Below, in pieces: positions 6,973 through 52,500 of a DNA stretch of 59,969 nucleotides. The position numbers were made by a program, and so were the translations under genes. This stretch comes from a virus. Numbering within the stretch: the stretch's first letter is position 1; the number at the start of each line of letters is the position of its first letter. The notes beneath the pieces were generated by a model, which worked only from the letters and a program-made list of their open reading frames with translations, did no database searches and was not told the origin of the DNA. Where the stretch lies: the IMG/VR virus record IMGVR_UViG_3300037310_000161; one strand, written 5' to 3'.

Positions 6973-9747
6973 CTAGTCGTTATGGTGGTAAATGTGCGAA
7001 GTGCTGACGCCGATGGACTCGGTCTCCGCCCCCGTACCAGTTTGGCTTGTGCTGTCGCTCCGCTGTTCGTGGAACCCGATACTCATCCCGGCGCTCACGC
7101 TGCCGAGCGCTGAAGCCATCATCTGGGCCGCGACCATGGCGGCCTGTTTCATGGCTTCCTTGTTGAACCCGTAGGCCTGGACCTTCTCTTCGAGGAGCGT
7201 CTGAGCCCGTTTTATGAGAAGCTCGGCTTCCGCCACGTTCTCTTTTACCAGTTCTGCAAAGACCTTTACCAGTGCATCCCACATGCTGGCATATACCTGC
7301 GCGTCGGCTTCGTAGAGTTTAACCAGGCCCTCGTTCTTTTTGGACTGAATCTCGGCAATGGCGGTGTCGCGGGTAATGAGGGTCTTGATCCTCTCCATCA
7401 TGATCTGAGCCTCGGAAACGTTCTGCTTCACCAGCTCGGAAAAGATCTGCGTGAGAGCGTTCCAGGTCTGGGCGTAAACCGTTGAGTCGGCTTCGTAAAT
7501 CCGAATTAGACCCTCGTTATTTTTGAGCTTCAGCTCCGCCGCCTGGACCTCGGCCTGAAGACGCTTGACCGCAACGTCCGCCGCCGCGATGTTTTCTTTC
7601 ACCAGCTCGGAAAAGATTTGGGTGAGGGCGTTCCACTGCTGGGCGTAAACCTGTGCGTCCGCCTCATAGATCCGAATGAGTCCGTCGTTTGCCTTGAGCG
7701 TCAACTCCGCCGCCTGGATCTCCGCCTGCACCCGTTTGAAGAGCACGTCGGCCTGCGCCACGTTCTCTTTGACCTTCTCGCTGAAAATCTGCGTAAGGGC
7801 GTTCCAGGCCTGCGAGTACATCCCCGCGTCGGCTTCATAGAGCCGGATCAGGTTCTCGTTCTTCTTGCTTCGAATCTCGGCAAAGGCGGTATCCCGCTGA
7901 ATCGTGACCTTGATCCGCTCCATGGCCAGCTCGGCCGCCGCGATGTTTTCTTTCACCAGCTCGGAAAAGATCTGGGTGAGGGCGTTCCACTGCTGAGCAT
8001 AGACGGAGGCATCGGCTTCGTAAATCCGAATAAGCCCGTCGTTGGCTTTGATGGACAGCTCCGCCGCCTGAATCTCTGCCTGAACGCGGCGGTACAGAGC
8101 CTCGGAAGCGGCAACATTTTGTTTCACCTGTTCGCTGAAAATGGCCGTGAGAGCGTTCCAGGCCTGCGAGTAGGCCCCGGAGTCCGCTTCATAGAGCCGG
8201 ATCAGGTTCTCGTTCTTCTTGCTTCGAATCTCGGCAAAGGCGGTATCCCGCTGGAGAATCACCTTGATTCGCTCAAGGGCGATGTTGGCGGCGGTCTCAT
8301 TCTCCCGCGCAAGCACTGTGAAGACCTTGGTGAGTGCGTCCCATTGCTGGGCGTAAACCTGCGCGTCGGCTTCGTAGAGCTTGACCAGCCCGTCATTCTT
8401 CTTGGACTTGATGTCCGCGATGGCGGTATCCCGCATGATGAGAGCCTTGAGCCTCTCGATCTTGCCCTGGAAGATCGCGACCGCGTTGCGGGTGAGGTCA
8501 AGGAAGTAGTCCATCAGGTTCTTTTCAATCTGAATGGCTTTCTCGACGGCAAAGTGCGTGTTGGTCTGGGCAAGCCGGGCCTGCTCGATGGCAATCTCGC
8601 TGTTCAGGATCGTGAGGTTCCGCTCGATCCGGGCGTTAGCCTCCGCGTACTGCCCGAAGTAGGCTCCGGGCGGGTGGTGCCACCCCTGGACCGAGAAGCG
8701 TTCCGTGATATCCGCCCTCGTCTTTTCGCTCTCCAGCTCCTGGCGGGCGCGGGCGTTTTGCCAGATCTCGGCTTCGATGGCCGAGCCGAGCCCCGTTCCG
8801 CCGTTCAGAACCCAGTTCAGGAGCTTGGCGATCACGGCGCGAGTAAGCTCGGAGGTGTACTCCCCGCTCATAGGCTCAAACTCCACCGCCTCAAGCTCGG
8901 CGCTCACGGTGATGTCTTCGAGCGTCGGGCGAACGGGTGCGGCGGGGTTGATCTCGGGAACCGAGCCCAGCCGGTCCAGCGTGACCGTGGTGTCGATTTC
9001 CGAGGTCTCGATGTCGGTAAGTGCTGGCCTGACAGGTTCAACCGGGTTGACGGCGGGCGGGTCCGCCGCCCGCTCAAACGTGATGTCCGCCTCTACGGAA
9101 TCCACCGTCGCAAGTGTCGGACGAACCGGGGCGACCGGATTGATACTAGGAGTCGAGCCCACCCGCTCAAGCTCCACCCCGTCCACGTCGATGTCCCCCA
9201 GCTCGACGGTGTCGAGCGTGGGTCTGGATGGCTCAACGGGTGTAATGCCTGGAACCTCCGACTGCTTTTCGAAGGCGATCCCGCTTGTGTCCACCGTGGA
9301 GTCCACGTCCGCAAGCGCTGGGCGAACCGGGGCAACGGGGTTGACTGAGGGAACCCCTCCCTGTCTTTCGAAAGCGACTCCGCTCAAATCAAAATCGGTG
9401 TCCGGCTCAACCAGAGTCGGCCGCGTCGGGGCGACGGGCGTTGGTGTCGCAGGAGTAGTTTCCCGCTGAAAGGTGATATCCGCAGCAGTGTCGGGGACCG
9501 TAATATCCTCGATCTCCGGCCGGACCGGGGCAACCGGGTTGATGCTGGGCGGCGCCCCCACCCGCTGAAGAACAACGTCCGCCAGATCCATGTCGATGAG
9601 ATCTAGGGCGAGAAGCTGTTGCAGCAGGGCCGAGGCTTGCGCGTAGGCATCGGAGGCATAGTCCCCCGAAAGCCTGAAGCGGCTTTCTACAACGGCGCGG
9701 GTGTCCTCGCCCGTAATCGGTGGAACAGATGGAACTCCGATAGCCAT
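6973..9747 (-). CDS. Repeat-rich virion protein (924 aa) with two internal repeat families
   Basis: Track ORF with a GAGGAG RBS. It has about 6 N-terminal repeats of about 33 aa (xNPVAPVRPxL...) and about 8 C-terminal helical repeats of about 58 aa (LIRIYEADAQVYAQQWNALTQIFSELVKENIAAA...). Confidence 0.7.
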   Translation of the reverse strand: MAIGVPSVPPITGEDTRAVVESRFRLSGDYASDAYAQASALLQQLLALDLIDMDLADVVLQRVGAPPSINPVAPVRPEIEDITVPDTAADITFQRETTPATPTPVAPTRPTLVEPDTDFDLSGVAFERQGGVPSVNPVAPVRPALADVDSTVDTSGIAFEKQSEVPGITPVEPSRPTLDTVELGDIDVDGVELERVGSTPSINPVAPVRPTLATVDSVEADITFERAADPPAVNPVEPVRPALTDIETSEIDTTVTLDRLGSVPEINPAAPVRPTLEDITVSAELEAVEFEPMSGEYTSELTRAVIAKLLNWVLNGGTGLGSAIEAEIWQNARARQELESEKTRADITERFSVQGWHHPPGAYFGQYAEANARIERNLTILNSEIAIEQARLAQTNTHFAVEKAIQIEKNLMDYFLDLTRNAVAIFQGKIERLKALIMRDTAIADIKSKKNDGLVKLYEADAQVYAQQWDALTKVFTVLARENETAANIALERIKVILQRDTAFAEIRSKKNENLIRLYEADSGAYSQAWNALTAIFSEQVKQNVAASEALYRRVQAEIQAAELSIKANDGLIRIYEADASVYAQQWNALTQIFSELVKENIAAAELAMERIKVTIQRDTAFAEIRSKKNENLIRLYEADAGMYSQAWNALTQIFSEKVKENVAQADVLFKRVQAEIQAAELTLKANDGLIRIYEADAQVYAQQWNALTQIFSELVKENIAAADVAVKRLQAEVQAAELKLKNNEGLIRIYEADSTVYAQTWNALTQIFSELVKQNVSEAQIMMERIKTLITRDTAIAEIQSKKNEGLVKLYEADAQVYASMWDALVKVFAELVKENVAEAELLIKRAQTLLEEKVQAYGFNKEAMKQAAMVAAQMMASALGSVSAGMSIGFHEQRSDSTSQTGTGAETESIGVSTSHIYHHND

Positions 9748-23919: not shown

Positions 23920-25389
23920 TTAGCTGTATCGCTCATCGTTATCGTGGTGAGCTGTACCATAGATAACCTCGAAATCCTTTTCCGCCTGCGACTTGGGCTT
24001 CTGGGCCGCCAGCGGAGTGATCGGCCGCGCCATGGCAATGTGGCAGCACTCGTCATAGAGATGGTCCTCGGTCGCCGTATCGATATCCTCCGGGTTGTTC
24101 TTATCCATGATGAGATTGGGCAGGGTACGGAAAAAGTGGTCGCATGTGTCATAGGCCGCCATCATGGGCCGCCCGATATCCGGCACCCTGATGCGCTCGC
24201 GGAATGCCCTGATCTTGAGCTGGCGATTTGGGTCGCCGGTGACCAAATAGATTCCCTTCTCGGCGAACACCTCGGCTGTGCTCGGGCCTTGCCCGCCGCC
24301 CCGGTAGTCCGGGCGCTTCTGGAAGCAGTCCGGCCCGGCGAGCCGGATAATGCCGCGCCCGTTGAGCTTCCAGCGGTCCTCGCGCTCAATGATGCCGTCC
24401 GCGATCTCGGAATCCGAGAGCCTCATGCCCTGGTCGGCCGTGCCATTCCACCCGTACCACTCAGCACATCGGATCACCCGGCCGTCGTTGTCCACCCACC
24501 ACCAACCGATGGAAAACGGCTTGCCGAAGCCCCAATCCATGGTCATGTAGAGCGGCTTGCCCTCGGGAACGGGCCAGAGGGGCCTGATGCCGTGGTGCTT
24601 GCGCGTGATCTCTGGGAAGGCCTGCCCCACGAAAATTTGCCAATCGCCTTCCGCGAAGGCCCTGCGGAGTTGTTCGGGAAGTGTCTGGAGCATCGCCCAG
24701 TAGTTGGGGTCCAGGTGCGGGTTATCCGTGGCCTTGCTGGGGACGTAGGCGAACATGGGCCTGTAGTCGGTTGGGGCGATCCACTCTGGTGGAAAATCGT
24801 GGTCCATCCAGAATGCTTTGACCCAGCCATGCCCCACGCCGCCAGGGTTTGTCGCGCCGATGAACTGGCACTGCCGGTCTGTGAGTCCCGGCCAGCGGAG
24901 TCTGGATCGCAGATGTGTGAATGTCTCGAAAGGGTTTTTGGTCAGCTCGTCTACCGCGATCAGGCAGAACTCGGCTGATTGATATTTGCTGGGGTCGTCC
25001 AGGTTGCGGAAACAGATCACTCCGCCGCCGAGGTAGGGAGCCAGGATGTAGCATCGCCCGTATTCCTTGTGGTCGGAGTGCATCGCACCCATCTCGGGCG
25101 GAAACTCTCTGGGGATCTTAGAGAGTTGCCGGTCCTTGAGGGCCGGATAATCTTCGCAGGCCAGCATCGAAACCGGGCGGTCCACTCCCTGCCCCGCGAG
25201 ATCGATCAGGCGTCTTACCGAATACCACCGCAGGAAATAGCTCTTGCCGCCGCCCAGCGCCCCACCATACAGCAGGAACTTGATGATCCCGCTGTCCAGC
25301 AGGTCAATAGCCTCCATCTGGCGCGGCGTGAACCGGGCCAGCTCGGTGTCGAACTCGACCTCGGCCTTAGGTGAGTAGTTCAGAGGCAT
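23920..25389 (-). CDS. terL: Terminase large subunit
   Basis: Walker A-like YGGALGGGKSY and Walker B-like CLIAVDELT, with a C-terminal nuclease-size region. It is 489 aa and overlaps the TerS stop. Confidence 0.9.
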   Translation of the reverse strand: MPLNYSPKAEVEFDTELARFTPRQMEAIDLLDSGIIKFLLYGGALGGGKSYFLRWYSVRRLIDLAGQGVDRPVSMLACEDYPALKDRQLSKIPREFPPEMGAMHSDHKEYGRCYILAPYLGGGVICFRNLDDPSKYQSAEFCLIAVDELTKNPFETFTHLRSRLRWPGLTDRQCQFIGATNPGGVGHGWVKAFWMDHDFPPEWIAPTDYRPMFAYVPSKATDNPHLDPNYWAMLQTLPEQLRRAFAEGDWQIFVGQAFPEITRKHHGIRPLWPVPEGKPLYMTMDWGFGKPFSIGWWWVDNDGRVIRCAEWYGWNGTADQGMRLSDSEIADGIIEREDRWKLNGRGIIRLAGPDCFQKRPDYRGGGQGPSTAEVFAEKGIYLVTGDPNRQLKIRAFRERIRVPDIGRPMMAAYDTCDHFFRTLPNLIMDKNNPEDIDTATEDHLYDECCHIAMARPITPLAAQKPKSQAEKDFEVIYGTAHHDNDERYS

Positions 25390-25936
25390 CCGGCTGCCCG
25401 CCTTTGTTGATCGTGATGTGGAGCGTGTTGACCTGATTTTCGATCACGTCCCCGAATAGTCGCAAGTGCTTCCCAGCCTTCTCCAGCGCTGAATTTTTGT
25501 CCCAGAACTTGTACTCCAGAATCGCCTCGGGCAGCACCAGGCCCTCGCGGGTTTTGAGCACCTTGACCTTGACGCTCGCGACCGCTCGGGCGGTGTCCTC
25601 GTCCAGATCTTGCAGCGGTATCAGCGACCCATCCGGATGAACCAGCTTTCGGGCATCCGAGAACGCAATGCGCCCGATCTCCCGCAGAACATCATCCTGT
25701 TTGATCCCGGTCCTCTCGGAGCGCGCCTGGATAGCCTGATCGACCGCCAGCTTGACCCGAGGATCCTTGAGCAGCAGACGACCGATAGTCGCTGCACTCG
25801 GGGGGTCCGGGCTGTACCCCGCCCGCACAGCCGCCGCCGAGGCGTTGAGATCGAGCAGGTACTCCTCGACAAACCGCCGCTGTTTCGGCCGGAGCCCCGC
25901 CTGATAGAGGCCTTTACGCTCGGCGCCTTCAGCCAT
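25367..25936 (-). CDS. terS: Terminase small subunit (Terminase_2-like)
   Basis: LRPKQRRFVEEYLLDLNASAAAVRAGYSPDPPSAATIGRLLLKDPRVKLAV matches the classic TerS HTH pattern. Confidence 0.85.
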   Translation of the reverse strand: MAEGAERKGLYQAGLRPKQRRFVEEYLLDLNASAAAVRAGYSPDPPSAATIGRLLLKDPRVKLAVDQAIQARSERTGIKQDDVLREIGRIAFSDARKLVHPDGSLIPLQDLDEDTARAVASVKVKVLKTREGLVLPEAILEYKFWDKNSALEKAGKHLRLFGDVIENQVNTLHITINKGGQPDASELLT

Positions 25937-26790: not shown

Positions 26791-26900
26791 TGGTGCAACA
26801 TTCTTGTACCAAATGAAGCACTCTTGCACCAAATGTAACCGGAGTTACACTGCACCAAATGAAACATTTTTGCACCAAATGTAACCGGAGTTACACTGCA
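26791..26900. promoter_or_regulatory. Array of TTG[CT]ACCA boxes, including two perfect 31-bp direct repeats
   Basis: TGGTGCAA (26791, inverted), TTGTACCA (26804) and TTGCACCA or TGCACCA at about 26825, 26851 and 26871. The 31-mer ttgcaccaaatgtaaccggagttacactgca occurs at 26824-26854 and 26870-26900. Each copy contains the palindrome TGTAAC-cgga-GTTACA. Confidence 0.7.
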
Positions 26901-26930
26901 TCAAACGGCTCACCATGCAGCAAACCCCGC

Positions 26931-28977: not shown

Positions 28978-29373
28978 TCAGGCGAGCAGATCCTCGGCGT
29001 TCCCGCCAAGGTCCGCGAGTGTTATCTGACGCACGCGGGGCTCCCACCTCATGGCGACCCCGCCTCGCTTCATCTTGACCTTCCGCCAGGACCACAATTC
29101 AAGGGCCGTTCCAGGCGTTTCCAGCCACTTTCTCGTCTCGACCGCCCGCTCGCCCGTGATCTTCCGAAAATGGTCTGAAAAGCTGTTTCCGCAGCTTTGC
29201 ACCCCTATCACGCCAGCTACCGGGTCGAGCGCGATCACGTCGATTATCCCAAACAGGTCCTGCCGGACACCGTGGGGTCCGGCGTATTGATTCCACTTCT
29301 CGACTATCGCGCACTCCAGGCCGCGTGCACGGAGTGCTCGAAGGGTTCGTTGTGTCGGTGTCAATTCTGCCAT
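28978..29373 (-). CDS. PD-(D/E)xK-type nuclease, candidate Holliday-junction resolvase (131 aa)
   Basis: Track ORF trimmed to Met 69 (ATG 29373, GGAGAA RBS). Sequence: MAELTPTQRTLRALRARGLECAIVEKWN...RQDLFGIIDVIALDPVAGVIGVQSC. The E...D-x-(I/V)-A...VQ layout is typical of small phage resolvase-like nucleases (recollection). Confidence 0.55.
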   Translation of the reverse strand: MAELTPTQRTLRALRARGLECAIVEKWNQYAGPHGVRQDLFGIIDVIALDPVAGVIGVQSCGNSFSDHFRKITGERAVETRKWLETPGTALELWSWRKVKMKRGGVAMRWEPRVRQITLADLGGNAEDLLA

Positions 29374-29389
29374 TCCGTTTTCTCCATCT

Positions 29390-29989
29390 GCGAGATTCTG
29401 CAAGGGGGGTGCGAGAGAGAGATCCCCTATATAGGGAATCTCTCTCGCACGCACCCTCCTAGTCCCCGCGAGATTCTCGCATCCCCCCAAACCACTGGAA
29501 TCATTACGTTTTCGGAACCTGCGCCTTTTATCTCGCACGAATCTCGCACGAATCTCGCACGAATCTCGCACTCGCACGAATCTCGCACCGAAAACCTAAT
29601 GATTTCGGCCCCCGAGCCCGGAATCTCGCGCGAATCTCGCGCGAATCTCGCACGAATCTCGCACCCAAAATTCGGCCGTTTTTCGAATCTCGCACGAATC
29701 TCGCACAGCTCCCCCCGAATCTCGCAGGCCCCCGAATCTCGCATGAATCTCGCGCGTGGCTCTATCGCGGGGGAGGTCTGGATGCCCTCCCCCCTTAAAA
29801 AATCTCGCACCCGTAAACCCTTGAGTTTTCTAGTTTCTCGCACCGATCTCGCACGAATCTCGCACGACTCTCGCACCCGTTCATCCGAGCACCTCATCCA
29901 CGTTTACACCCATCAACTCGTCAATCTCGCGTGATTCTCGCAGTATTCTCGCAGCATTCTCGCACGGGTACAGCCCATTCCCGCGAGAT
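29390..29989. repeat. Iteron array (probable replication origin): about 25 forward and 4 inverted copies of the (GAA)TCTCGCA(C) core
   Basis: Counted by eye. Runs with exact 11-bp phasing occur at 29531/42/53/64, 29624/35/46/57, 29687/98, 29737/48 and 29836/47/58/69. There is also a 42-bp imperfect palindrome at 29409-29450. The array lies in the 507-bp gap downstream of the primase-helicase gene and runs into its last codons. Confidence 0.8.
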
Positions 29990-31875
29990 CGGCCCGTTAC
30001 CCGCTCAACCCGGCCGACAGCAATCAGCCCGTCCAAAATCCGCTGGAGAGCGGTCCGCGTGAGAGGTCTCCCCCCACCATTAGTGAGGCACCCCCACACC
30101 GGCCGCCGAGCATTCCGGGCATCCCCGAATGGGTTACCCTCCGCCACGCCCCGCCGGAGCATCTCGACCACCTGATCCCCGTGAGTGGCCAGCAGGCCCG
30201 CAAACATCGCGGCGTCTTCCCGCGCATGGAACACCCCGTCGGCATAGTCGAGGGTGAGTGACTCCCCCGCGAGAGAATAGTTGGATTTGATGCGGACCAG
30301 TTTGCGGGCGCCGGGGATTTCCTTGTGCTGCATCAAGACAAGGCGGGTCCGGACGGAGTTTTCCCACGCGGTGGATCCCGAGAGCATGTCGCCCGTGGAT
30401 ACTCCGGCCCGTGACGGGTGGGCCAGGAGCATTTGGGTGAGCCCGTGGAGTCGGCACCATCGGCGTAAATCAACGCGGATGAACCCGCTTGCCTGAGCCC
30501 GGTCGTTTTCGTTGCCCCCGAACACTGAGGTCAGGGGGTCTGCGACCAGGAGGCGCGGGCCGGGCGGCATCCCCTTGATCCACGCCTCGACCTGATCGTA
30601 AAACGGTGTGCGCTGGGGGTTGCCGTTGCGGTCGAACTGGACGAGCGTGTAATCCCTGGAGGGGACAGCGTAGGCCCGGATCCATGGCGCGTGGCCCTCC
30701 GGGGGCGTGATCTCGCCCAGAGCCCGGCGGTAGCGGGCGACGCGCCGGTGGACCTCGTTTTTATCGTCCTCGGAGAGAAGCAGGAGCACGGCGGCGGGGG
30801 TGGTGGGGAGCCCCAGCCACTCCGTCCCGTAGGCTGCCGAGTAGGCGAGCTGGAGGGCCAGGAGCGTCTTGCCGAACCCGCCCGCGCCATAGAGCGAGGT
30901 GATCTCGCCTCGGGGGATCCAGTCCTCTACGAGCCACTCCCGTGGGGGCGGGTCGTCGTTGAGGGTCGTGAGGTCGAGCAGCGCGGAGATCGGTTTTGGC
31001 GGGGGCTTCGGGGCTTCGGGGATGGGTTCGAAATCGGCCGCCGGACTGGCGCACCCGGCCTGGTTTTGCGCGTAGCGGTAGGCATTGGCGATGCGGACGA
31101 GGAAGTGGTTTTCAATCTCTTCGCCCTCCCACGGGGGCTCGCACCGGGGGTTCCAGTGTTCCATCATTAGCTGCTCGCAGACATCCTGGGAGACCCCGAG
31201 GTCGCGGACCCGGCACGCGGTGCGGTAGACGAGCCCTTCGGTCACGCCGTCGATTGAGGGCTCGGCGTCGTTTTTGAGGTAGCGCGTGGCGAGGTGAATG
31301 GCGAGATCGGTATCGATTTCGCAGGCGGGCGTTTCCTTGCGGGGCTCGCGGGTGTGCTCGGAGGGCTTGAGGGCCTCCAGCAGGGGTGTGGGGAGCGCGG
31401 CAAATCGGCGGTCTTCCTCCCAGCGATACCGCCTGCCCTCGACCACGGAACCGGGGGAGATGACATACCCGCCGCGTGATTTGATATCAAGCCCGATGCC
31501 GGAAAACGGCTTCGTGGCTGATTTGGTGACCCCGACGTACCATCTGTGGAGCTTGCCTGAGTGCGTGCGGGTCGTAAACGTCTCCGGGATAGGCCCGTAG
31601 AGCATGTCCAGCTCGGCGAACGCGCCGGGCCTGTCCTCATCGACCACGCAGTGGCCAGACCGGCCAGGGGCGATCCCCCAGTTGCAGCCGGGGAACTCCT
31701 GCATCCAGTGGCGAACTTGCTCGGGATCGTTGCTGGCCTTGGCTTCCCAGTTTTTGACGAGGGGCGGGGACTTCGCGCTCCTTTTAATAGGAAACAGGAA
31801 GAGCCCGAGGGTCAGGGCTTTTCGGAGGTCCGACCCGAGGGCTGGAGGTTTGTTGGTGTCGGCAGGGGCTGACAT
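29881..31875 (-). CDS. Bifunctional primase-polymerase (Prim-Pol) / RepA-DnaB-like P-loop helicase (664 aa)
   Basis: Trimmed to MSAPADTNKPP (ATG 31875, GAGGAG RBS). Prim-Pol pattern: LFLFPIKRSAKSP...NWGIAPGRSGHCVVDEDRP...THSGKLHRWY. Walker A ITSLYGAGGFGKTLLALQLA and Walker B RLLVADPLTSVF. Confidence 0.85.
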   Translation of the reverse strand: MSAPADTNKPPALGSDLRKALTLGLFLFPIKRSAKSPPLVKNWEAKASNDPEQVRHWMQEFPGCNWGIAPGRSGHCVVDEDRPGAFAELDMLYGPIPETFTTRTHSGKLHRWYVGVTKSATKPFSGIGLDIKSRGGYVISPGSVVEGRRYRWEEDRRFAALPTPLLEALKPSEHTREPRKETPACEIDTDLAIHLATRYLKNDAEPSIDGVTEGLVYRTACRVRDLGVSQDVCEQLMMEHWNPRCEPPWEGEEIENHFLVRIANAYRYAQNQAGCASPAADFEPIPEAPKPPPKPISALLDLTTLNDDPPPREWLVEDWIPRGEITSLYGAGGFGKTLLALQLAYSAAYGTEWLGLPTTPAAVLLLLSEDDKNEVHRRVARYRRALGEITPPEGHAPWIRAYAVPSRDYTLVQFDRNGNPQRTPFYDQVEAWIKGMPPGPRLLVADPLTSVFGGNENDRAQASGFIRVDLRRWCRLHGLTQMLLAHPSRAGVSTGDMLSGSTAWENSVRTRLVLMQHKEIPGARKLVRIKSNYSLAGESLTLDYADGVFHAREDAAMFAGLLATHGDQVVEMLRRGVAEGNPFGDARNARRPVWGCLTNGGGRPLTRTALQRILDGLIAVGRVERVTGRSRGNGLYPCENAARILRESREIDELMGVNVDEVLG

Positions 31876-33274: not shown

Positions 33275-33337
33275 CATAGACGACATAGACGACATAGACG
33301 ACATAGACGACATAGACGACATAGACGACATAGACGA
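33275..33337. repeat. Seven tandem copies of the 9-bp unit CATAGACGA, ending on the ATG of the SNF2 gene
   Basis: Read directly at 33275-33337. An in-frame TAG at 33331-33333 lies 3 nt before ATG 33337. Confidence 0.9.
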
Positions 33338-35660: not shown

Positions 35661-36123
35661 AGTGATTGGGCTGGAGAGGCTGTGCGCGGCAATCGAGGCA
35701 ATTGCGACGCCGACGCGGCCCCCGGCAAACGAGCCTGCCGCCCCGGCGGAAGAGCCTGCCGCCCCGGTGGAAGAGCCTGCCGCCCCGGTGGAAGAGCCTG
35801 CCGCCCCGGTGGAAGAGCCTGCCGCCCCGGTGGAGACCCGGCGCTCACGGAGTCGGAAGTCATCTAAAGCGGCTCCGGCCGAGGAGCTTCCGCCCGCCGA
35901 AGTCCCCCCGGCCGAGGAGCCCCCGGCCGAAAACACCCTTGTCCTGGTGTCGGATGAGCAGGCGGAGAGCCTGCGGGAGCCGCTCAAAAATTACCTCTCC
36001 AAGTATGGGCGGGATCGGGCCGTGCAGCTTCTCGCGGAATACGACGCGGTCAACGTGAGCACGGTCCCGGCGGCGCACTATGAGTCACTGCTGGCGGCTC
36101 TCGGCAATGGAGGCGGGGCATGA
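35638..36123 (+). CDS. Hypothetical protein with 5 tandem (E)EPAAPV repeats (161 aa)
   Basis: Track ORF. It contains a 21-bp DNA repeat, gaagagcctgccgccccggtg, in 4 copies plus one variant at 35728-35832. Confidence 0.55.
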   Translation: MEILFRVEVIGLERLCAAIEAIATPTRPPANEPAAPAEEPAAPVEEPAAPVEEPAAPVEEPAAPVETRRSRSRKSSKAAPAEELPPAEVPPAEEPPAENTLVLVSDEQAESLREPLKNYLSKYGRDRAVQLLAEYDAVNVSTVPAAHYESLLAALGNGGGA

Positions 36124-40166: not shown

Positions 40167-40273
40167 TTCATCCCGGCATATCACATCTCAACGCACCCCT
40201 ACGCGAAGCCCCGCGAGGCACGTCTCGGTATCGGCCTGTACAAAGCGCACCGACGCGATGCATCGTAACGCTT

Positions 40274-40470
40274 CGCAAGGCGCTCCATCCCTTCGCATCG
40301 GCCGCATCCGGGCCTCGCGTCGCACGTCGCCGCAAGGCATTCCACCCCTTCGCATCGGCCACATCTGAGCCCCGCGTCGCACGTCGTCGCAAGGCATCCC
40401 ACCCCTTCGCATCGGCCACATCTGAGCCCCGCGTCGCGTGCCGTCGCAAGGCAACCCCAAGCCGCGCAAC
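40274..40470. repeat. 57-bp tandem repeat, 3 full units plus a partial fourth, in a 525-bp non-coding gap
   Basis: Units start at 40274, 40331 and 40388 (cgcaaggc[ag][ct]tcca[tc]cccttcgcatcggcc[ga]catc...gcgtcgc...), with a partial unit from 40445. Degenerate relatives extend over about 40190-40650. Confidence 0.85.
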
Positions 40471-40694
40471 CCAACGCACCGTGTATTACCTGGAACAAAG
40501 TCCTGCATCGCCCGGCAAGAAACACGGCCCTTCGCGTATCAACGCGGGGCAAAGCAAGTGCAGGGCTTCGCAGTACACCGCTCATACCAACGCGCTCCCA
40601 CGCAACGCATCGCTGGGCAAGGCGCTGCGCCGCACCGGAAACACCCGGCATAAAAAGCTGCCCACCTAATAAACCCAACAGAGGAGTTTCAACC

Positions 40695-43230: not shown

Positions 43231-43591
43231 TCGGGTGGTTCTCCTCGACTACAAAGAACTCGCGGCAATGCTCAAGATCCGGCCGGGCACCCTCATGAAG
43301 TCGTGGCGGGAATGGCCCCATGTTTTTGTGGGGGCGGGACGGACTCTGAGGAGCGCCAGGTTTCCACTGGATGCGGTCGAGGGGGCTATCCGTGAGCGTC
43401 TACAAAGACAAACGGTATCCGGGGCAGTGGGCTGTGAGCTTCATGGTCCAGGGGGTGCGGTATCGAAAGCGCGGGTTCAGAACCCGCCGGGAGGCCCAGC
43501 TTTGGGAGGCCGCCGAGCGGGAAAGGGTGCTGTCCCCGCCGCGCCAGACCCCTACGGCATCCTTTGCCTCGTTGGCAAACCGCTATCTTGA
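43220..43591 (+). CDS. Excisionase/AlpA-like HTH ORF whose 3' end is anomalous
   Basis: LLDYKELAAMLKIRPGTLMKSWREWPHVFVGAGRTLRSARFPLDAVEGAIRE is a complete HTH_17-like domain. The start is TTG 43220 or GTG 43235. There is no stop until 43591, about 200 nt into the integrase gene in another frame. Confidence 0.4.
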   Translation: MGVDRVVLLDYKELAAMLKIRPGTLMKSWREWPHVFVGAGRTLRSARFPLDAVEGAIRERLQRQTVSGAVGCELHGPGGAVSKARVQNPPGGPALGGRRAGKGAVPAAPDPYGILCLVGKPLS

Positions 43592-44447
43592 GCATTGTGC
43601 CGCCAGAATGGGGAAGAACACCGTTCGGTATAAGGCGACCCATTTTCGGCGGTTTGCTCAATGGCTGGGGGGTGACTACAGTGTTGAGCTGCTCACCAAA
43701 AATATGGTCGGGGACTTCCTGCTCCATGTCGCTGGAACTAGTGGAAATAAGCAGGCAAACCGAACTCACAGGGATCTGTTCGCTCTGTTCAACTGGGCCG
43801 TGCAGGGTGAACTTACAGGAAAAAATCCGGCGCGCTCTTGGGTCCGATTCCCAGAAGATCCGTTCCACAAGTATGTACCCCCCGTAGCGGATGTTGAGGC
43901 GGTCATCCTGGCCGCCGACCCGGACGAGACCGATTTACTCGAGACCCTGTACTACACTGGAGGACGGATTGGCGAGGTACTCGCGGCCACTTGGGAGGAT
44001 GTCAATTTTGAGCGACGGGAGATCGTCCTTTGCACGCGCAAAAGAAAAGGTGGGGAGCTGCAACGGGATAAGGTTCCGATCCCGGAAGCCCTTGTCAAAA
44101 CCCTTGCCCGACGATACCGAAGACGCGGCGGTGACGGGGACGGAGCCCACATTTTCCATTTCACCGTTCACCGGAAGCGGTACTTGCTCCACCATCTCTG
44201 TGACCGGGCTAAGGTTCGGCGATTCGGGTACCATGGAATCCGCCATCACGTGGCGAGCATCCTGGCGGACAGTGGAAAGGCGACGCTCAGACAGGTTCAG
44301 CAGTTTCTCCGGCACCGCAGACCCACCACAACAGAGCACTATCTGCATGAGGTGACCCGTGATCAGCGGGAGGTGGTCGAAATTCTGGAAATCGCTCGAA
44401 AAGGGGAGAAACAGAATGAGAAGGATCATCGATGGAAAGAGGTATGA
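43392..44447 (+). CDS. int: Tyrosine recombinase / phage integrase (351 aa)
   Basis: GTG 43392 lies 8 nt after GAGGGGG (the track start at ATG 43371 is also possible). It has an arm-binding-like N-terminus VYKDKRYPGQWAVSFMVQGVRYRKRGF. Catalytic residues sit in TGGRIGEVL (R), GYHGIRHHVAS (HxxR) and RPTTTEHYLH (Y). Confidence 0.9.
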   Translation: MSVYKDKRYPGQWAVSFMVQGVRYRKRGFRTRREAQLWEAAERERVLSPPRQTPTASFASLANRYLEHCAARMGKNTVRYKATHFRRFAQWLGGDYSVELLTKNMVGDFLLHVAGTSGNKQANRTHRDLFALFNWAVQGELTGKNPARSWVRFPEDPFHKYVPPVADVEAVILAADPDETDLLETLYYTGGRIGEVLAATWEDVNFERREIVLCTRKRKGGELQRDKVPIPEALVKTLARRYRRRGGDGDGAHIFHFTVHRKRYLLHHLCDRAKVRRFGYHGIRHHVASILADSGKATLRQVQQFLRHRRPTTTEHYLHEVTRDQREVVEILEIARKGEKQNEKDHRWKEV

Positions 44448-44727
44448 TACGGAGACAGCCGAGGACGTGGCGAGCTGGCATAACCACTACTATCCCAACG
44501 ATTTCCACTATTGTACGGAGACCCTCTACCGGACGAAAAAAGGCGGCTGGTTTCTCGCCGGGGAGGGTGGCCCTCTGAGTAAATACGCCAGATCCTGCGG
44601 GGACGGACGGCGCGGGGGCAAGGGGCTCTTCCCCATCACGGAGGAAGAAGCCCGGCAATGGCTGGAGGAGCGGGATGGGGTCGATGTGCTCGAAAAATAC
44701 TTCGGACACTTGGTCGAGGATGCCTGA
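44416..44727 (+). CDS. Hypothetical protein (103 aa)
   Basis: Trimmed to MRRIIDGKRYDTETAEDVA (ATG 44416, AAAGGGGAG RBS). It overlaps the integrase stop. Confidence 0.5.
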   Translation: MRRIIDGKRYDTETAEDVASWHNHYYPNDFHYCTETLYRTKKGGWFLAGEGGPLSKYARSCGDGRRGGKGLFPITEEEARQWLEERDGVDVLEKYFGHLVEDA

Positions 44728-44924
44728 TGGTCTTTGAGATCCTTCCCGGAAATCGGATCAAGCGGTTCAGGAACCGGCAGACCCGGTGCCGGTGCGGCAA
44801 GAAACGGCACGGCCGCCCTGGTGTCGGCCGGGGGGTATGTCACTGGGGAACTCAAAACAAACCGCGCCGCCGTGAGTGGAAGGTGGTCCCGTGGGAGGAG
44901 TCTTATGGAAGCACAAGCACTTGA
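44727..44924 (+). CDS. Small basic Cys-containing ORF (65 aa)
   Basis: TGATG coupling with the upstream stop. Sequence: MVFEILPGNRIKRFRNRQTRCRCGKKRHG... The composition is borderline for a real gene. Confidence 0.3.
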   Translation: MVFEILPGNRIKRFRNRQTRCRCGKKRHGRPGVGRGVCHWGTQNKPRRREWKVVPWEESYGSTST

Positions 44925-45036
44925 ATGGACATGGGACACCCCGGCAAAGCCTGGTTTTTACTGGTGCCACCAGAGTGGCCAAACCCGCATGGTCGAGGTC
45001 TGGGGTTATCGTAGCGAGGCAAATCGGCCAAACTAA
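44905..45036 (+). CDS. Small hypothetical protein (43 aa)
   Basis: A GGGAGGAG RBS lies 4 nt before ATG 44905. Sequence: MEAQALEWTWDTPAKPGFYWCHQSGQTRMVEVWGYRSEANRPN. Confidence 0.4.
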   Translation: MEAQALEWTWDTPAKPGFYWCHQSGQTRMVEVWGYRSEANRPN

Positions 45037-45138
45037 AGGCTTTTTACCAGTGAGGGCGGCGGAGCGGTGGTCGATGGCATAAATTACTATGGCGCCGCGT
45101 GGTACGGCCCGATTGAGCCGCCGGGATATGTCACTCCC

Positions 45139-45160
45139 GGCGAGCAATCAGGTGAGCAAT
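45139..45160. promoter_or_regulatory. Left arm-type repeat pair (GG[CT]GAGCAAT in 2 copies) flanking the tRNA-like core
   Basis: ggcgagcaatcaggtgagcaat read at 45139-45160. The same dimer occurs at 45372-45394. Confidence 0.55.
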
Positions 45161-45223
45161 TCACTACTAAGTTTGCGTGAGCTGCGCGGGGAAACCGCCG
45201 GTTTATCCGGGATTGGCGCCAAC

Positions 45224-45315
45224 GGATGAATGCGGGTCTGGGGCTCTCGCTCGCCTGCTAAGCGAGTGTAGTCCGTAGAGGGCTACCGAGGGTTCGAATC
45301 CCTCTCTCTCCGCCA
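45224..45315 (+). tRNA. tRNA-Ser(GCU)-like element with a defective acceptor stem, the probable attP core
   Basis: Anticodon arm CTCGC-CUGCUAA-GCGAG (45250-45266, anticodon GCU). Long variable arm GTAGTCC-gtaga-GGGCTAC. T arm GAGGG-TTCGAAT-CCCTC, then 3' TCTCTCC-G-CCA ending at 45315. The only 5' partner, GGATGAA (45224-45230), leaves 2 mismatches out of 7. Confidence 0.55.
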
Positions 45316-49580: not shown

Positions 49581-52500
49581 CTAATCCGCCGTCGCGGCGA
49601 GAAGCGCCCGCTCCCGCCTGCCGGGTTGCCGCATCCGGTTTATCTGACCCCGCAGTGCTTCCCTGCTGATGAGTGGAACGTAGGCCTGCCGCCCGGCCGA
49701 AAGCACCCGGTTGTTGTAAGCCGCCACCTGATCCATGATGATCTTGAGCTCCACCGGATCCTTGGCGCCGTCTGACACGTATGCCCGATACCGCTCGTAG
49801 ATCTTCCCCCTGGATTCGCCATAGCGGGACAGCTCCGCCTTAGCCTCGAACTGCCGCTCTTCGTGCATGGCCCGCTCGGATCCCCGGAACCCCGAAGCCC
49901 GCTGCATGGTCTCGGTCGTGCTCGGCCGGTACGGTTTCCCGTTCTTATCCCACACCTGCTTGCCGGAGCTGGTGGTGACCGAATCCAACTCCCGGAAGGC
50001 CCGAACGAGATTCGAGGCGAATGCCGGAAGCGCCTTTTCAGCCGCCTTGAGGGGCTGCCCGGTGGAGAGATACCCCCCGGCTTTCTGGATATCGGTCGCA
50101 ACCCCGCCGAAAGGCCCGGTAAGGTCGGTAAGAGTTTTAGGGACTTCGAGCCCGATGGCGAGAGACCCCGAGATATCGACCCCCAGAAGGCCCATGATCC
50201 CGTACCGGGCGCCTTTCTCCGCCGTGTCCCCGAGAGTCTTCCGGATGGTGTCGTAGACCATTTTCTCCGGGTCGCGGTCGTCGTCTGCGGCTCCGAGGAT
50301 CCCCCGAGCTATCGCCATGGCGGCGGCATAGCCCGCAAATCCCGAAGCCCCGCCGAGGACCGCCGGTGCCGCCAGGGCGAAAGCCAAGCCCTTGGCGTCT
50401 TGCCTGTTCAGCTTGTGCTCGAAGAGCATCTGCACGTAGTTGTGGGCAAACTTCTGAAACGTGTAGCCGGTCTGCGCGATCTTGGCGAACGGGTTGGTCC
50501 CCATGGCCCACGTCGGGAGCGTCCCCTTGCCGTACACCCCGTGCGCCCGCTCGGTTGCGAGCTGCGCGTTCTTTGCCGCCGTCGCGGCGTTCTGCCCCTG
50601 CGCCCGGGCCATCCGGTACGCGGCAAGAAGGGTCGTCCCACGGTTCCACTGCTCGGTTTTCCCGAACATCCACATGGCTTTGTCCATGACCTTAGACCAC
50701 ACGCCGCCGAACCCCTGATCCAACTCCCGCATGGCCTCCCGCACAAGCTGCGGGTTGTCCACCCCACGGGTGTGAACGTCGGCCATGAATGTCCGCTCCT
50801 CCTCGTTTGCAAACTCCTTTCCGCCCATGAAGGCCCCGTAATCTTTACCCGCCGTGAACAGCTCCTGCCCGATCTTGAGGAGGCTCCCCTTGCCGCCCAG
50901 TGCAAACTTGAGAATGGCGGGGGGTGCTGTCGTGGCCTGCGCCGTCACGTTGACGAGGGCCGACCTCGGGTTGAATCCCAGGTACTTGAAAGACACGATG
51001 GATTTCCCGAGCGCGATAGCCCGGTCCCACCTGTCGGCGTTCCGCATCTGCTCTGTGACGTATCCCTTGAGCCAGGAGTAGCGCTTAGGCTCTTTCACGG
51101 CATCAACGTCCATGAGCGCGGCCATCATCTTCTGCCCGGCTTCCGCCTTGGCGATACCGCCCGCGATCTGGGCGACGTAATTTCCAACCCTTTGGGCCGG
51201 GTCCGTGATGTAGCCCCGGACCACCTCGCCATCGCGCCCCGTTCGTGCGATCTTATGCGCCCGGAAGGCCCGGGCCTTCAGCATGTTGGATGCGGACACC
51301 AGGACTTCGCCCTGGAGGGCCGCGTTCAGCGCCGGGTGCTGGACCGCCTGATTGACCGCGTACTCGATGGCTTTTCCCATGTCCACGATGTTGAGGTTCA
51401 TCTGGATGTCTTCGGGGAGCTTCGAGACCAGGCCGTCCCGGAAGTTCGTGTAGCCTTCCCGCCCAAGCTGAAGCTTGAGCTTTTCGATCTGCCGCTGGCT
51501 TCCCTTGTGGAAGCGGTAGAAGTTGCCGTCCTTATCCTTGGCCGTCAGGAAATATTCTCCAGGCTCCCTGGACCGGGGGGCGTAAAAGCCCTTGAGTTCC
51601 CCCATCTCCTGGTAGAGAAGCAGGAGCTGGGAAAGGGTGTATTTCTGCTTGCGCCCGTCTCCCAGCGGGATCTCGATTGACGGCTCGCCCTGATCTGCTG
51701 GCGGTTTGTTCGGGTTCTTCTTCTCTTTTTCCAGGGTGTCGATGATGTCTTTGACCGGCTGTCTCAGGTACTCCAGCAACTCATCGAACGTCTTGCGAAC
51801 AGAGTCGACGGCCGCGAGCCCTTCGGCCGAAAGCCCGGACTTGGACCTCATCTCCGACCACTTGACCTCGTTCACGTCCATATCGTCCAGAATCTTTTCG
51901 ACCTTCGCATACTCCGCCGGGTCGGCTTTCCTGAGAGCGGACAGGCGGTCTACCGGGTCTTTATGCTTGAGGTAGATCTCGTTTTTGCGCTCTTCCCGGT
52001 GCTGGGTCGCATCATAGGCCTGCTTCACCGTCGGGTGGTCTATGTACTCCGGGGTTCGGAGCATACTCTCAAGGAACGTCATGTCCTTGGGGTGCAGGGC
52101 CTTCTTGAACGCCTGCACGGTCGAGGTGACTTCGTCTCTCATCTTGGACTTGAGCGAGGCATGGATGTCCGGGTTGCTGGGGTCGAACGTGCCGCGATTA
52201 AAAATGGATTTAATTTGAGTTGGAGAGAAAACAACATAAATATCATCAGTTATTGGATCATTCACATTTTTAAAAATTACTCCGTCGTTACCATCCGCTA
52301 TAGCTTCATCTAAAATCTCTGAAAAAGTTATATCGCCCCGCACTTCATGGTTAAAATCATGAATCTTAGGATTTTTTATAGATAAATATGCTGGAATTAT
52401 TCCTGGATTAAATTTTGCATATCGATCTCTCTGTAAATACATTTTTACAAAATAGTCAACCTTGTCTTTCTCTAGCTTAGCCTCATAAAATTCAACAGTA

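Follow-up and report, generated by a model that had tools for sequence, protein, structure and literature searches.

The stretch of viral DNA analysed here (IMG/VR virus record IMGVR_UViG_3300037310_000161, 59,969 nucleotides in full length and hereafter the window) belongs to a temperate tailed phage by its gene content and carries a dense array of short repeats, or iterons, at positions 29388-29965, at the 3' end of a minus-strand gene that encodes a primase-helicase. We consider it likely, from the sequence and from analogous replicons, that this array is the replication origin of the phage and that the abutting primase-helicase gene encodes the initiator. An iteron origin beside its initiator gene had been suggested in a first-pass annotation of this DNA, and the suggestion is supported by the occurrence of the module in relatives, by repeat clusters at the corresponding site in 37 of 52 family loci, by a minimum of the GC skew and by precedents in staphylococcal pathogenicity islands (SaPIs) and pRN1.

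A phased iteron array at the end of a primase-helicase gene

A direct count of the core TCTCGC found 25 forward and 4 inverted copies at 29390-29988, in exact agreement with the first-pass estimate, compared with 26 forward and 26 inverted copies in the other 59.4 kb of the window. The 11-bp unit GAATCTCGCAC, which reads GTGCGAGATTC on the gene strand, has 9 exact matches in the array. With at most one mismatch it has 17 sites, all of them at 29388-29876, where 1.34 are expected for the whole window, and a count of 17 was reached in none of 100 shuffles. Six runs have units spaced at exactly 11 bp, four of them with 4 units (core starts 29531-64, 29624-57, 29836-69 and 29925-58) and two with 2 units (core starts 29688/99 and 29737/48), and Tandem Repeats Finder reported 11-bp arrays at 29530-29571, 29621-29662, 29684-29706, 29836-29877 and 29925-29964. 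Five runs had been counted before, with their sites placed on one face of the DNA. The spacing stands and the number of runs is corrected to six; no common 10.5- or 11-bp register was found across the whole array, and the sites share a DNA face only inside a given run. All 29 copies retain the TCTCGC core while the spacers have diverged, and intact cores in exact 11-bp runs despite diverged spacers speak for selection acting on these sites.

Runs of 11-bp direct repeats on one helix face are also a property of type II centromeres. The parC site of plasmid R1 consists of two sets of five 11-bp repeats bound by ParR, and on this likeness the array could be a partition centromere that segregates an extrachromosomal prophage. 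We find this scarcely credible: Pfam identified no ParA, ParM or ParB-type gene in 44 scanned window open reading frames (ORFs), a set that includes non-overlapping ORFs of at least 150 amino acids; a tyrosine integrase by a tRNA-Ser gene indicates integrative lysogeny; and the array is linked to a replication gene, which it also tracks in relatives.

Along the direction of the gene, the elements follow one another as run F, the stop codon, run E, a single unit with an A-tract and a G/C-rich hairpin, runs D, C, B and A, a head-to-head pair, a 52-bp dyad, a last inverted unit and the next gene. The gap of 507 bp reported earlier between the primase-helicase stop (29881-29883) and the next ATG (29373-29371) was found again. 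Run F (29922..29965, plus strand; core starts 29925, 36, 47 and 58) has 4 units at 11-bp spacing with diverged spacers and lies within the tail of the ORF, and run E (29833..29876, plus strand) has 4 units at the same spacing directly after the stop codon. The single iteron (29800-29810) adjoins the A-tract TTAAAAAA (29795-29802), which is located 3' of the G/C-rich hairpin GGGGGAGG-9 nt-CCTCCCCC (29769-29794; DNA fold -10.8 kcal/mol, z -3.25), all three on the plus strand. Runs D (29734-29755) and C (29685-29706), together spanning 29685..29755 on the plus strand, have 2 units each and enclose a single unit at 29717-29727. Run B (29621..29664, plus strand) has 4 units at 11-bp spacing, and run A (29528..29588, plus strand) has 4 units at 11 bp, one truncated unit and one further unit. 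Run A is flanked by an inverted AT-rich pair, AATCATTACGTTTTCGG at 29499-29515 and CCGAAAACCTAATGATT at 29588-29604, which a repeat search found to be 94% complementary. A superunit of ~93 bp is present twice, at 29493-29571 and 29586-29664, so that runs A and B each come with an AT-rich element.

A head-to-head iteron pair, GCGAGA-T-TCTCGC (29465..29482), is followed by the terminal 52-bp dyad (29405..29456), identified through repeat search and DNA folding, in which inverted iteron-like arms GTGCGAGAGAGA surround a CCCTATATAGGG core. As DNA, the dyad forms a hairpin of -19.8 kcal/mol (z -5.5) located 430 bp 3' of the stop. Opposed iterons thus clamp the CCCTATATAGGG core, yet 25 of the 29 units share one orientation and lie on one side of it. 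The last inverted iteron (29388..29398, minus strand) precedes the next gene by 15 bp; this gene encodes 131 amino acids (28978..29373, minus strand). Short AT-rich elements are found in the TATATA core of the dyad, at 29499-29515, at 29588-29604 and in the A-tract at 29795-29802.

The 664-residue product of the neighbouring gene (29881..31875, minus strand, from the ATG at 31875) is the putative initiator. The label of primase-helicase, given in the first pass from the letters alone, is borne out by a Prim-Pol domain (~31387-31815, minus strand; Pfam PF09250, E 3e-29) and an AAA_25 domain of the RepA-type helicases (~30406-30972, minus strand; Pfam PF13481, E 1.6e-37). In profile searches against PDB, the helicase part matched RSF1010 RepA (1G8Y, E 3.5e-20, profile positions 284-505) and the N-terminal part matched pRN1 ORF904 (1RNI, E 5e-8), and no SaPI Rep or superfamily 3 (SF3) helicase chain was among the matches. 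The protein continues into a conserved C-terminal domain (approximately residues 548-638; 29962..30234, minus strand) that ends with GRVERVTGRSRGNGLYPC and is the candidate iteron binder. An AlphaFold2 (AF2) model of the last ~90 conserved residues (LQRILDGLIAVGRVERVTGRSRGNGLYPC) has a predicted local distance difference test (pLDDT) score of 76.8 and consists of a helix at 59-71 and then a beta-hairpin. Searches of Pfam and PDB sequences gave no significant relevant match for this domain, and Foldseek searches of PDB and BFVD gave nothing significant (best E 0.08-0.2); nearly all of the weak top matches are winged-helix folds (MarR, PadR, LmrR, HxlR, SSV1 F-93, histone H1 and LexA DNA-binding domains). 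The model suggests that the domain is likely, if unproven, to be a winged helix, and it may be this part of the protein that binds the iterons. No full-length fusion of Prim-Pol and AAA_25 was found in cultured phages or PLSDB plasmids, where matches were to single domains and none covered 80% or more, so these sources offer no annotated origin to borrow. A comparison of 28.9-32.0 kb with deposited phages gave no DNA similarity match.

The first-pass annotation had proposed GC skew as a check on the origin. The cumulative curve is V-shaped with its global minimum at 30,237, beside the array, whether the array is masked or not. The sign changes inside the minus-strand primase-helicase gene and not at the point of transcription divergence at 32.5 kb: the gene body has a skew of +0.13, and the last 370 nt of the gene and everything leftward are negative. 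This is consistent with bidirectional replication from ~29.4-30.2 kb, and is weak evidence in a phage of 60 kb.

The module in relatives and across the family

The module is shared with relatives at 31-48% protein identity, and the unit GTG[C/T]GAGATT is retained at 42-48%. The metagenomic contigs L002/L003, L004 and L005, which encode the relatives P0003, P0001 and P0002 respectively (47-48% identity), have GTGTGAGATT units that begin at the stop codon, and 9 (L002/L003), 13 (L004) and 15 (L005) copies of GTGTGAGA(TT) lie 3' of the gene over 370-450 bp. The intergenic regions of the window, L002, L004 and L005 align blockwise as repeats, a C-tract element and then repeats with an AT-rich element, and end in a terminal dyad of inverted units followed by the last inverted unit. 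The element at 29769-29810 sits in this alignment where the other three keep their C-tract element, the position of the last inverted unit is kept in L002 and L004, and the L002 dyad core CCCTATATAGGG is identical to that of the window. In L083 (42% identity), the unit TGCGAGATT occurs 18 times (18-19 copies), mostly in 11-bp phase, with a duplicated superunit of ~120 bp and a dyad GGGGTGCGAGATATATACCCCTTAAGGGGTATAAATATCTCGCAAACCCC. AT-rich elements like those of the window go with the iteron runs in L002, L004, L005 and L083.

More distant loci have the same parts in other arrangements. L007/L008 (31% identity) have 11-bp GTGAGAGCAAG units and a dyad ATGAGAGGAAAGGGCTATATTATATATATAGCCCGTTCCTCTCAT upstream of a small ribbon-helix-helix (RHH) gene and the primase-helicase. 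The upstream position in L007, together with the differing genes on the far side, indicates that the module tracks the primase-helicase and not its other neighbours. The clade L096-L100 (33% identity) has CGCGGAC units directly after the stop that end in CGCGGAC-GGGGGTATATAAGAACCCCC-GTCCGCG, and its iterons and dyad repeat the design of the window with an unrelated word. The dyad element is common to L002, L004, L005, L083, L007 and L096. The dyads of the window, L002, L083 and L007 form strong DNA hairpins (z -5.5 to -11.4) whose inner stems vary in sequence but stay complementary, and no T-run follows any of them.

The start of the array can be placed precisely against the proteins. The relatives P0001-P0003 (47-49% identity) end at a conserved GNGLFPL*, with the TGA inside the first iteron (TTG TGA GAG ATT); this TGA-bearing iteron (TGTGAGA) is at 2275-2283 in L004, 2717-2725 in L005 and 7801-7809 in L002. 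At the position of the relatives' stop, the window reads TGC GAG AAT, which contains the repeat core TGCGAGA and no stop. The substitution of TGCGAGA for TGTGAGA removes the iteron-embedded stop, and therefore the ORF runs 26 codons further through run F. The resulting read-through tail ENAARILRESREIDELMGVNVDEVLG (29884..29961, minus strand) is not conserved, is missing from every relative and has low AF2 confidence. It had been noted in the first pass that the repeats extend into the last 30 or so codons of the gene. The translation ...ENAARILRESREID... is reproduced from the sequence, with the qualification that the four copies within the ORF fall in the 26-codon tail that the relatives lack. 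Relative to the conserved protein end, the array starts at the same point in the window and in the phages of P0001-P0003, and its coding overlap is a by-product of the repeat sequence and not a coding constraint. A further inverted copy, at 29983, falls in the codons of the conserved GRSRGNG motif; relatives have nothing equivalent, and it may be coincidental. We also observed a possible covariation between protein and DNA: GNGL-Y-P ends (the window, ~29965-29982, and L083) pair with GCGAGA units, and GNGL-F-P (P0001-3) and GNGL-F-T (P0007) ends pair with GTGAGA units, in too few independent lineages to judge.

Within the clade of L096-L100, the primase-helicases of L096, L097, L098 and L100 are 90-100% identical, yet past the CGCGGAC iterons and dyad that they have in common, at ~200-560 bp from the stop, they carry entirely different long tandem arrays, such as 24 copies of a 16-bp unit in L098 and 12 of 9/16-bp units in L100. 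These long arrays look like hypervariable satellites beside the putative origin. The 29 copies of the window might by the same token be a neutral satellite, a small ancestral set of sites grown by slippage whose extra copies are functionless, an explanation that bears on copy number only and leaves the origin reading undisputed. Near-identical proteins with differing arrays in L096-L100 do point to a slippage-prone region, runs A and B lie within the duplicated 93-bp superunit, and relatives manage with 9-15 copies. We nevertheless judge the explanation improbable, since the core is intact in every copy and the 11-bp spacing is exact in six runs while spacers have diverged, and since L083 independently keeps 18-19 copies of the same unit as the window.

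The family at large was examined in ~150 further loci with relatives from isolate genomes, metagenome-assembled genomes (MAGs) and IMG/VR, in which the gene was placed by tblastn. A motif-agnostic scan took from each locus the 400-bp window richest in any one 7-mer, accepted clusters of at least 6 copies and removed duplicates. Of the 52 loci retained, 37 had their strongest 7-mer cluster starting between 150 bp before and 700 bp after the stop, where a uniform distribution predicts 5.4 (binomial P ~3e-25), and these 37 clusters at the 3' end of the gene employ 35 different words. The typical array of the family has 6-12 copies in mixed orientation with commonest spacings of 9-11 bp, compared with which those of the window (29 copies) and L083 (19) appear to be expanded versions. 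Dyads with at least 3 nearby recurrences of the arm word were found in 18 of 127 loci in the 3' zone and in 4 of 143, 3 of 108 and 1 of 113 in three control zones, and dyads with a G/C-clamped AT core in 11 of 127 as against 1 of 143, 1 of 108 and 0 of 113, which shows the dyads to be specific to the 3' position. Requiring the middle 10 bp of a dyad to be at least 70% AT proved too strict, as a single locus passed. In the family scan the repeat words are lineage-specific and change together with the initiator, and 3'-end placement with lineage-specific words is what marks an initiator that has its own cognate origin.

The position of the array between the replication gene and a co-directional block that leads to the small and large terminase genes (TerS and TerL) suggests another function, a transcriptional control region in which operators and a promoter serve the 131-aa gene, the small genes, terminase and the structural genes. 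The repeats would be the binding sites of a regulator, perhaps of the primase-helicase, and CTATAT in the dyad core would be a -10 element. CTATAT is present on both strands of the core, the relatives are mostly in Alphaproteobacteria, and we take the motif to resemble the alphaproteobacterial -10 consensus. The last inverted unit, 15 bp from the start codon that follows it, keeps its position in L002 and L004, and L007 has its module upstream of the RHH-primase operon. The scan of 28.9-30.3 kb for promoters and terminators, however, found no sigma-70-like promoter, with no -35 element apparent, and its single terminator-like site falls within the 131-aa gene and on the wrong strand. The 29 sites over 580 bp far exceed the needs of an operator, the gene after the array varies among relatives while the array always tracks the primase-helicase, and 3' placement with lineage-specific words across the family better fits a pair of initiator and origin. 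Transcriptional control is for these reasons unlikely as the explanation of the array, and such a role could coexist with origin function, as where inverted iterons autoregulate rep in iteron plasmids.

The contigs of several relatives, among them L003, L009, L096 and L100, stop inside or just past the 3' arrays. Sites of small terminases and end-proximal sites are often clusters of short repeats, and such contig ends could mark a packaging signal or genome-end repeat, either a pac or cos-like site for the small terminase or T7-like end-proximal repeats; in L002 the terminase gene is just ~1.4 kb downstream. Short-read assemblers are expected to break contigs at tandem repeats, though, and these ends are probably such assembly breaks. 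In the window, the TerS gene (25367-25936) is 3.4 kb away with several genes between, the L007 module is upstream of the primase operon in a 9.4-kb locus with no terminase, and the array is tied to the primase-helicase stop within a few bases in varied contexts that include chromosomal prophages. A packaging function is highly improbable on these grounds.

Several points weigh against the origin reading itself. The array lies on the boundary between the replication genes and the block of small, packaging and structural genes, where it may have a transcriptional role. A long AT-rich unwinding element was not found, the lowest GC content over 100 bp being 0.50-0.51 in a genome of 59% GC. The winged-helix assignment of the C-terminal domain is without statistical support (Foldseek E 0.08-0.2), and the GC skew is noisy in a temperate phage of 60 kb, with the flanking coding DNA at 28.35-30.25 kb adding to the minimum. 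In the family scan, a strong cluster was present in only 52 of the ~150 loci, and some of the top clusters (L096-L100) are a hypervariable satellite beside the true iterons, so that the ratio of 37 in 52 measures repeat-rich origin regions and not always recognition sites. Finally, a block of repeats at 40.18-40.69 kb is left unexplained.

Proposed initiation and likeness to known replicons

From the anatomy of the array and from experimentally studied analogues, we infer a sequence of steps by which the proposed origin may fire. The small C-terminal domain of the primase-helicase, probably a winged helix, would recognise the 11-bp unit GAATCTCGCAC, and the phased runs would gather many protomers for assembly of the RepA-type hexameric helicase. 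The DNA would then open at or next to the terminal dyad at 29405-29456, which is also a candidate site of helicase loading, and/or at the short AT-rich elements between runs. Once unwound, either strand of the dyad could fold into a G/C-clamped hairpin, possibly a priming signal for the fused Prim-Pol, and the family-A DNA polymerase and single-stranded DNA-binding protein (SSB) of the phage (37.3-40.2 kb) would extend. The 29 copies would have arisen from the ~6-12 units typical of the family by slippage of units and duplication of the superunit.

In the SaPIs of Staphylococcus aureus, Rep has a C-terminal winged-helix domain (WHD), 6-12 iterons come directly after rep, and iterons of opposite orientation lie to either side of an AT-rich centre (PMC9371898). 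The window resembles the rep-ori pair of SaPIs and other phage-inducible chromosomal islands (PICIs; Rep and the fused PriRep5), in which a self-loading helicase, sometimes fused to a primase, has its iterons 3' of the rep ORF: its own iterons begin at the stop codon and an inverted pair clamps a TATATA core. The two differ in that SaPI Rep is an SF3/AAA+ helicase whereas the helicase of the window is of the RecA-fold RSF1010 RepA type. SaPI iterons are 5-6 bp long and few, whereas those of the window are 11 bp long, with 29 copies mostly in one orientation and in phased tandem runs. The AT-rich site of SaPIs is central and the dyad of the window is at the end of the array, and the carrier here is a tailed temperate phage and not a satellite.

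The P4 alpha protein combines a primase, a helicase and an origin-binding C-terminal winged helix in one polypeptide (PMC2777425). Its primase is of the DnaG type and its helicase is SF3, in contrast to the Prim-Pol and RepA type of the window. The sites bound by P4 alpha are octamers (type I repeats), present both in ori and in crr, a separate element. The P4 ori is not likewise at the 3' end of the alpha gene, and P4 needs crr as a second cluster; the cluster of the window at 40.2-40.7 kb is a weak lead in this respect. The order of primase, helicase and winged helix is shared between pRN1 and P4 alpha, and no iterons were found in pRN1 (PMC2777425), a Sulfolobus plasmid. Its origin lies just 3' of orf904 and depends on a large stem-loop, and Bordetella phage BIP-1, which has proteins similar to ORF904, shows a comparable structure (PMC4234260). 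The window shares with ORF904 a homologous Prim-Pol, the order of primase, helicase and putative winged helix, and a strong dyad on the 3' side. ORF904 has an SF3 helicase and no iterons were found in its plasmid, whereas the window is dominated by iterons and its dyad is built from inverted ones. Taken together, the module of the window appears to work like the rep-ori pair of SaPIs, P4 and pRN1 and to stand outside those families, because its helicase is not SF3.

The helicase itself points to the IncQ plasmid RSF1010, in whose oriV RepC binds iterons, RepA unwinds and RepB' primes on the ssiA/ssiB hairpins (PMC8567376). The helicase of the window is homologous to RepA, RepB' has a fold of the archaeo-eukaryotic primase type, and iterons with hairpins parallel those of the window. 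The iterons of RSF1010 are 20 bp long and present in 3.5 copies, compared with the 11-bp units here. RSF1010 uses three separate proteins, whereas the window has primase and helicase in one ORF, with the three functions apparently fused, and Pfam found no RepC-like homologue in the scanned window ORFs. One palindrome in the window would give a hairpin on both strands, and it has no sequence similarity to ssiA/ssiB. In lambda, four 19-bp iterons lie midway along the gene of the initiator O, next to an AT-rich segment, and O recruits the host DnaB via P. The window is alike in having a putative phage initiator whose iterons overlap its own gene and unlike in that O is neither a helicase nor a primase.

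A bolder reading, which we put forward only tentatively, is that the family is an IncQ starter in a single polypeptide, with an archaeo-eukaryotic-type primase in the role of RepB', a RepA helicase and an iteron binder in the role of RepC, and that its origin consists of phased iterons that load the helicase and a G/C-clamped hairpin dyad, made of inverted iterons, for priming. The same tentative reading holds that the two-part origin occurs in many uncultured temperate phages and prophages and that the dyad primes both strands. As the first iteron overlaps the end of the gene, an iteron change from TGTGAGA to TGCGAGA alters the C-terminus of the protein. If this is true, the evolution of origin specificity and the structure of the initiator would be mechanically coupled, the 26-residue tail being beside the putative DNA-binding domain.

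In CRP-810-type roseophages, Prim-Pol with AAA_25 is a core gene, and the origin or repeats are not discussed (PMC11288001). A limited literature search found no description of 3' iteron arrays for the Prim-Pol/AAA_25 family. The arrangement itself is textbook and would not much surprise a specialist; the expansion to 29 copies in strict 11-bp runs, the placing of the stop codon inside the first iteron and the conservation of a dyad made of iterons are mildly unusual.

Genome context and significance

The window encodes the small and large terminase (23.9-25.9 kb), an SU10-type adaptor and a lysozyme. Its replication module on the plus strand (33.3-40.2 kb) consists of an SNF2 helicase, a DUF2800 nuclease, an Enc34-type SSB and the family-A polymerase (PolA). 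The tyrosine integrase (43371-44447) is next to the tRNA-Ser(GCT) gene (45224-45315), and this region (43371-45315) is likely the attachment region. The 131-aa gene downstream of the array had been called resolvase-like in the first pass, a label that searches of Pfam, PHROGs and PDB sequences failed to support with any match. Homologues of it follow the array in L002 (8224-8610) and L004 (2754-3140), and L005 and L083 carry unrelated genes in its place. On inspection, the gene that follows the array had looked RuvC-like in L083 and RusA-like in L005; both guesses were dropped, the former being unsupported by Pfam and the latter resting on a truncated ORF. An Rfam scan of the whole window returned nothing.

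The second repeat block is a non-coding, C-rich region of ~520 bp (40180-40690) bounded by the PolA stop (40166) and the ATG that follows (40695), with a 57-bp unit present 3.2 times (40273-40453). TCGCA, a pentamer of the iteron core, occurs in it 9-10 times forward and 0 times in reverse, where 0.3 per 511 bp is the background. The block is only a weak lead to a second iteron cluster, since the enrichment is mostly due to the 57-bp unit and the full TCTCGCA is absent. It might be a second cluster of sites comparable to P4 crr, or unrelated.

Other repeats and features were observed elsewhere in the window. Seven perfect tandem copies of CATAGACGA fill 33275-33337, the last of them ending precisely at the ATG (33337) that starts the SNF2 helicase gene, and a 21-bp unit is present 5 times at 35731-35834 in a 161-aa ORF upstream of DUF2800. 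A 46-bp repeat (2 copies) and a 26-bp repeat (3 copies) at 26808-26905 (TGCACCAAATGTAACCGGAGTTACAC) lie in lower-GC, apparently non-coding DNA ~0.9 kb from the TerS gene and are candidates for a site of regulation or packaging. A 924-aa ORF, possibly a tail or fibre gene, has long internal repeats of 171 and 354 bp (6973-9747). Low-GC islands are located at 47-49 kb (GC 0.36-0.46) and 52-53 kb (0.43), and a polyvalent protein of 3457 amino acids (49581-59954, minus strand) contains LPD1, N6 DNA methylase, ResIII/SNF2 helicase and ART-PolyVal (ADP-ribosyltransferase) domains.

If confirmed, the pairing of array and gene would give a defined origin and initiator to widespread uncultured temperate phages and prophages, mostly of Alphaproteobacteria-like hosts. 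It would also extend the pairing rule known from SaPIs, P4 and pRN1, all of which have SF3 helicases, to a family with a RecA-fold helicase. The 3' array could then serve as a marker for origin annotation in such phages, and the gene with its array would be a candidate minimal replicon for vectors in poorly tractable hosts. At least 35 distinct words and the C-terminal domains paired with them would constitute a natural data set on the specificity of DNA recognition.

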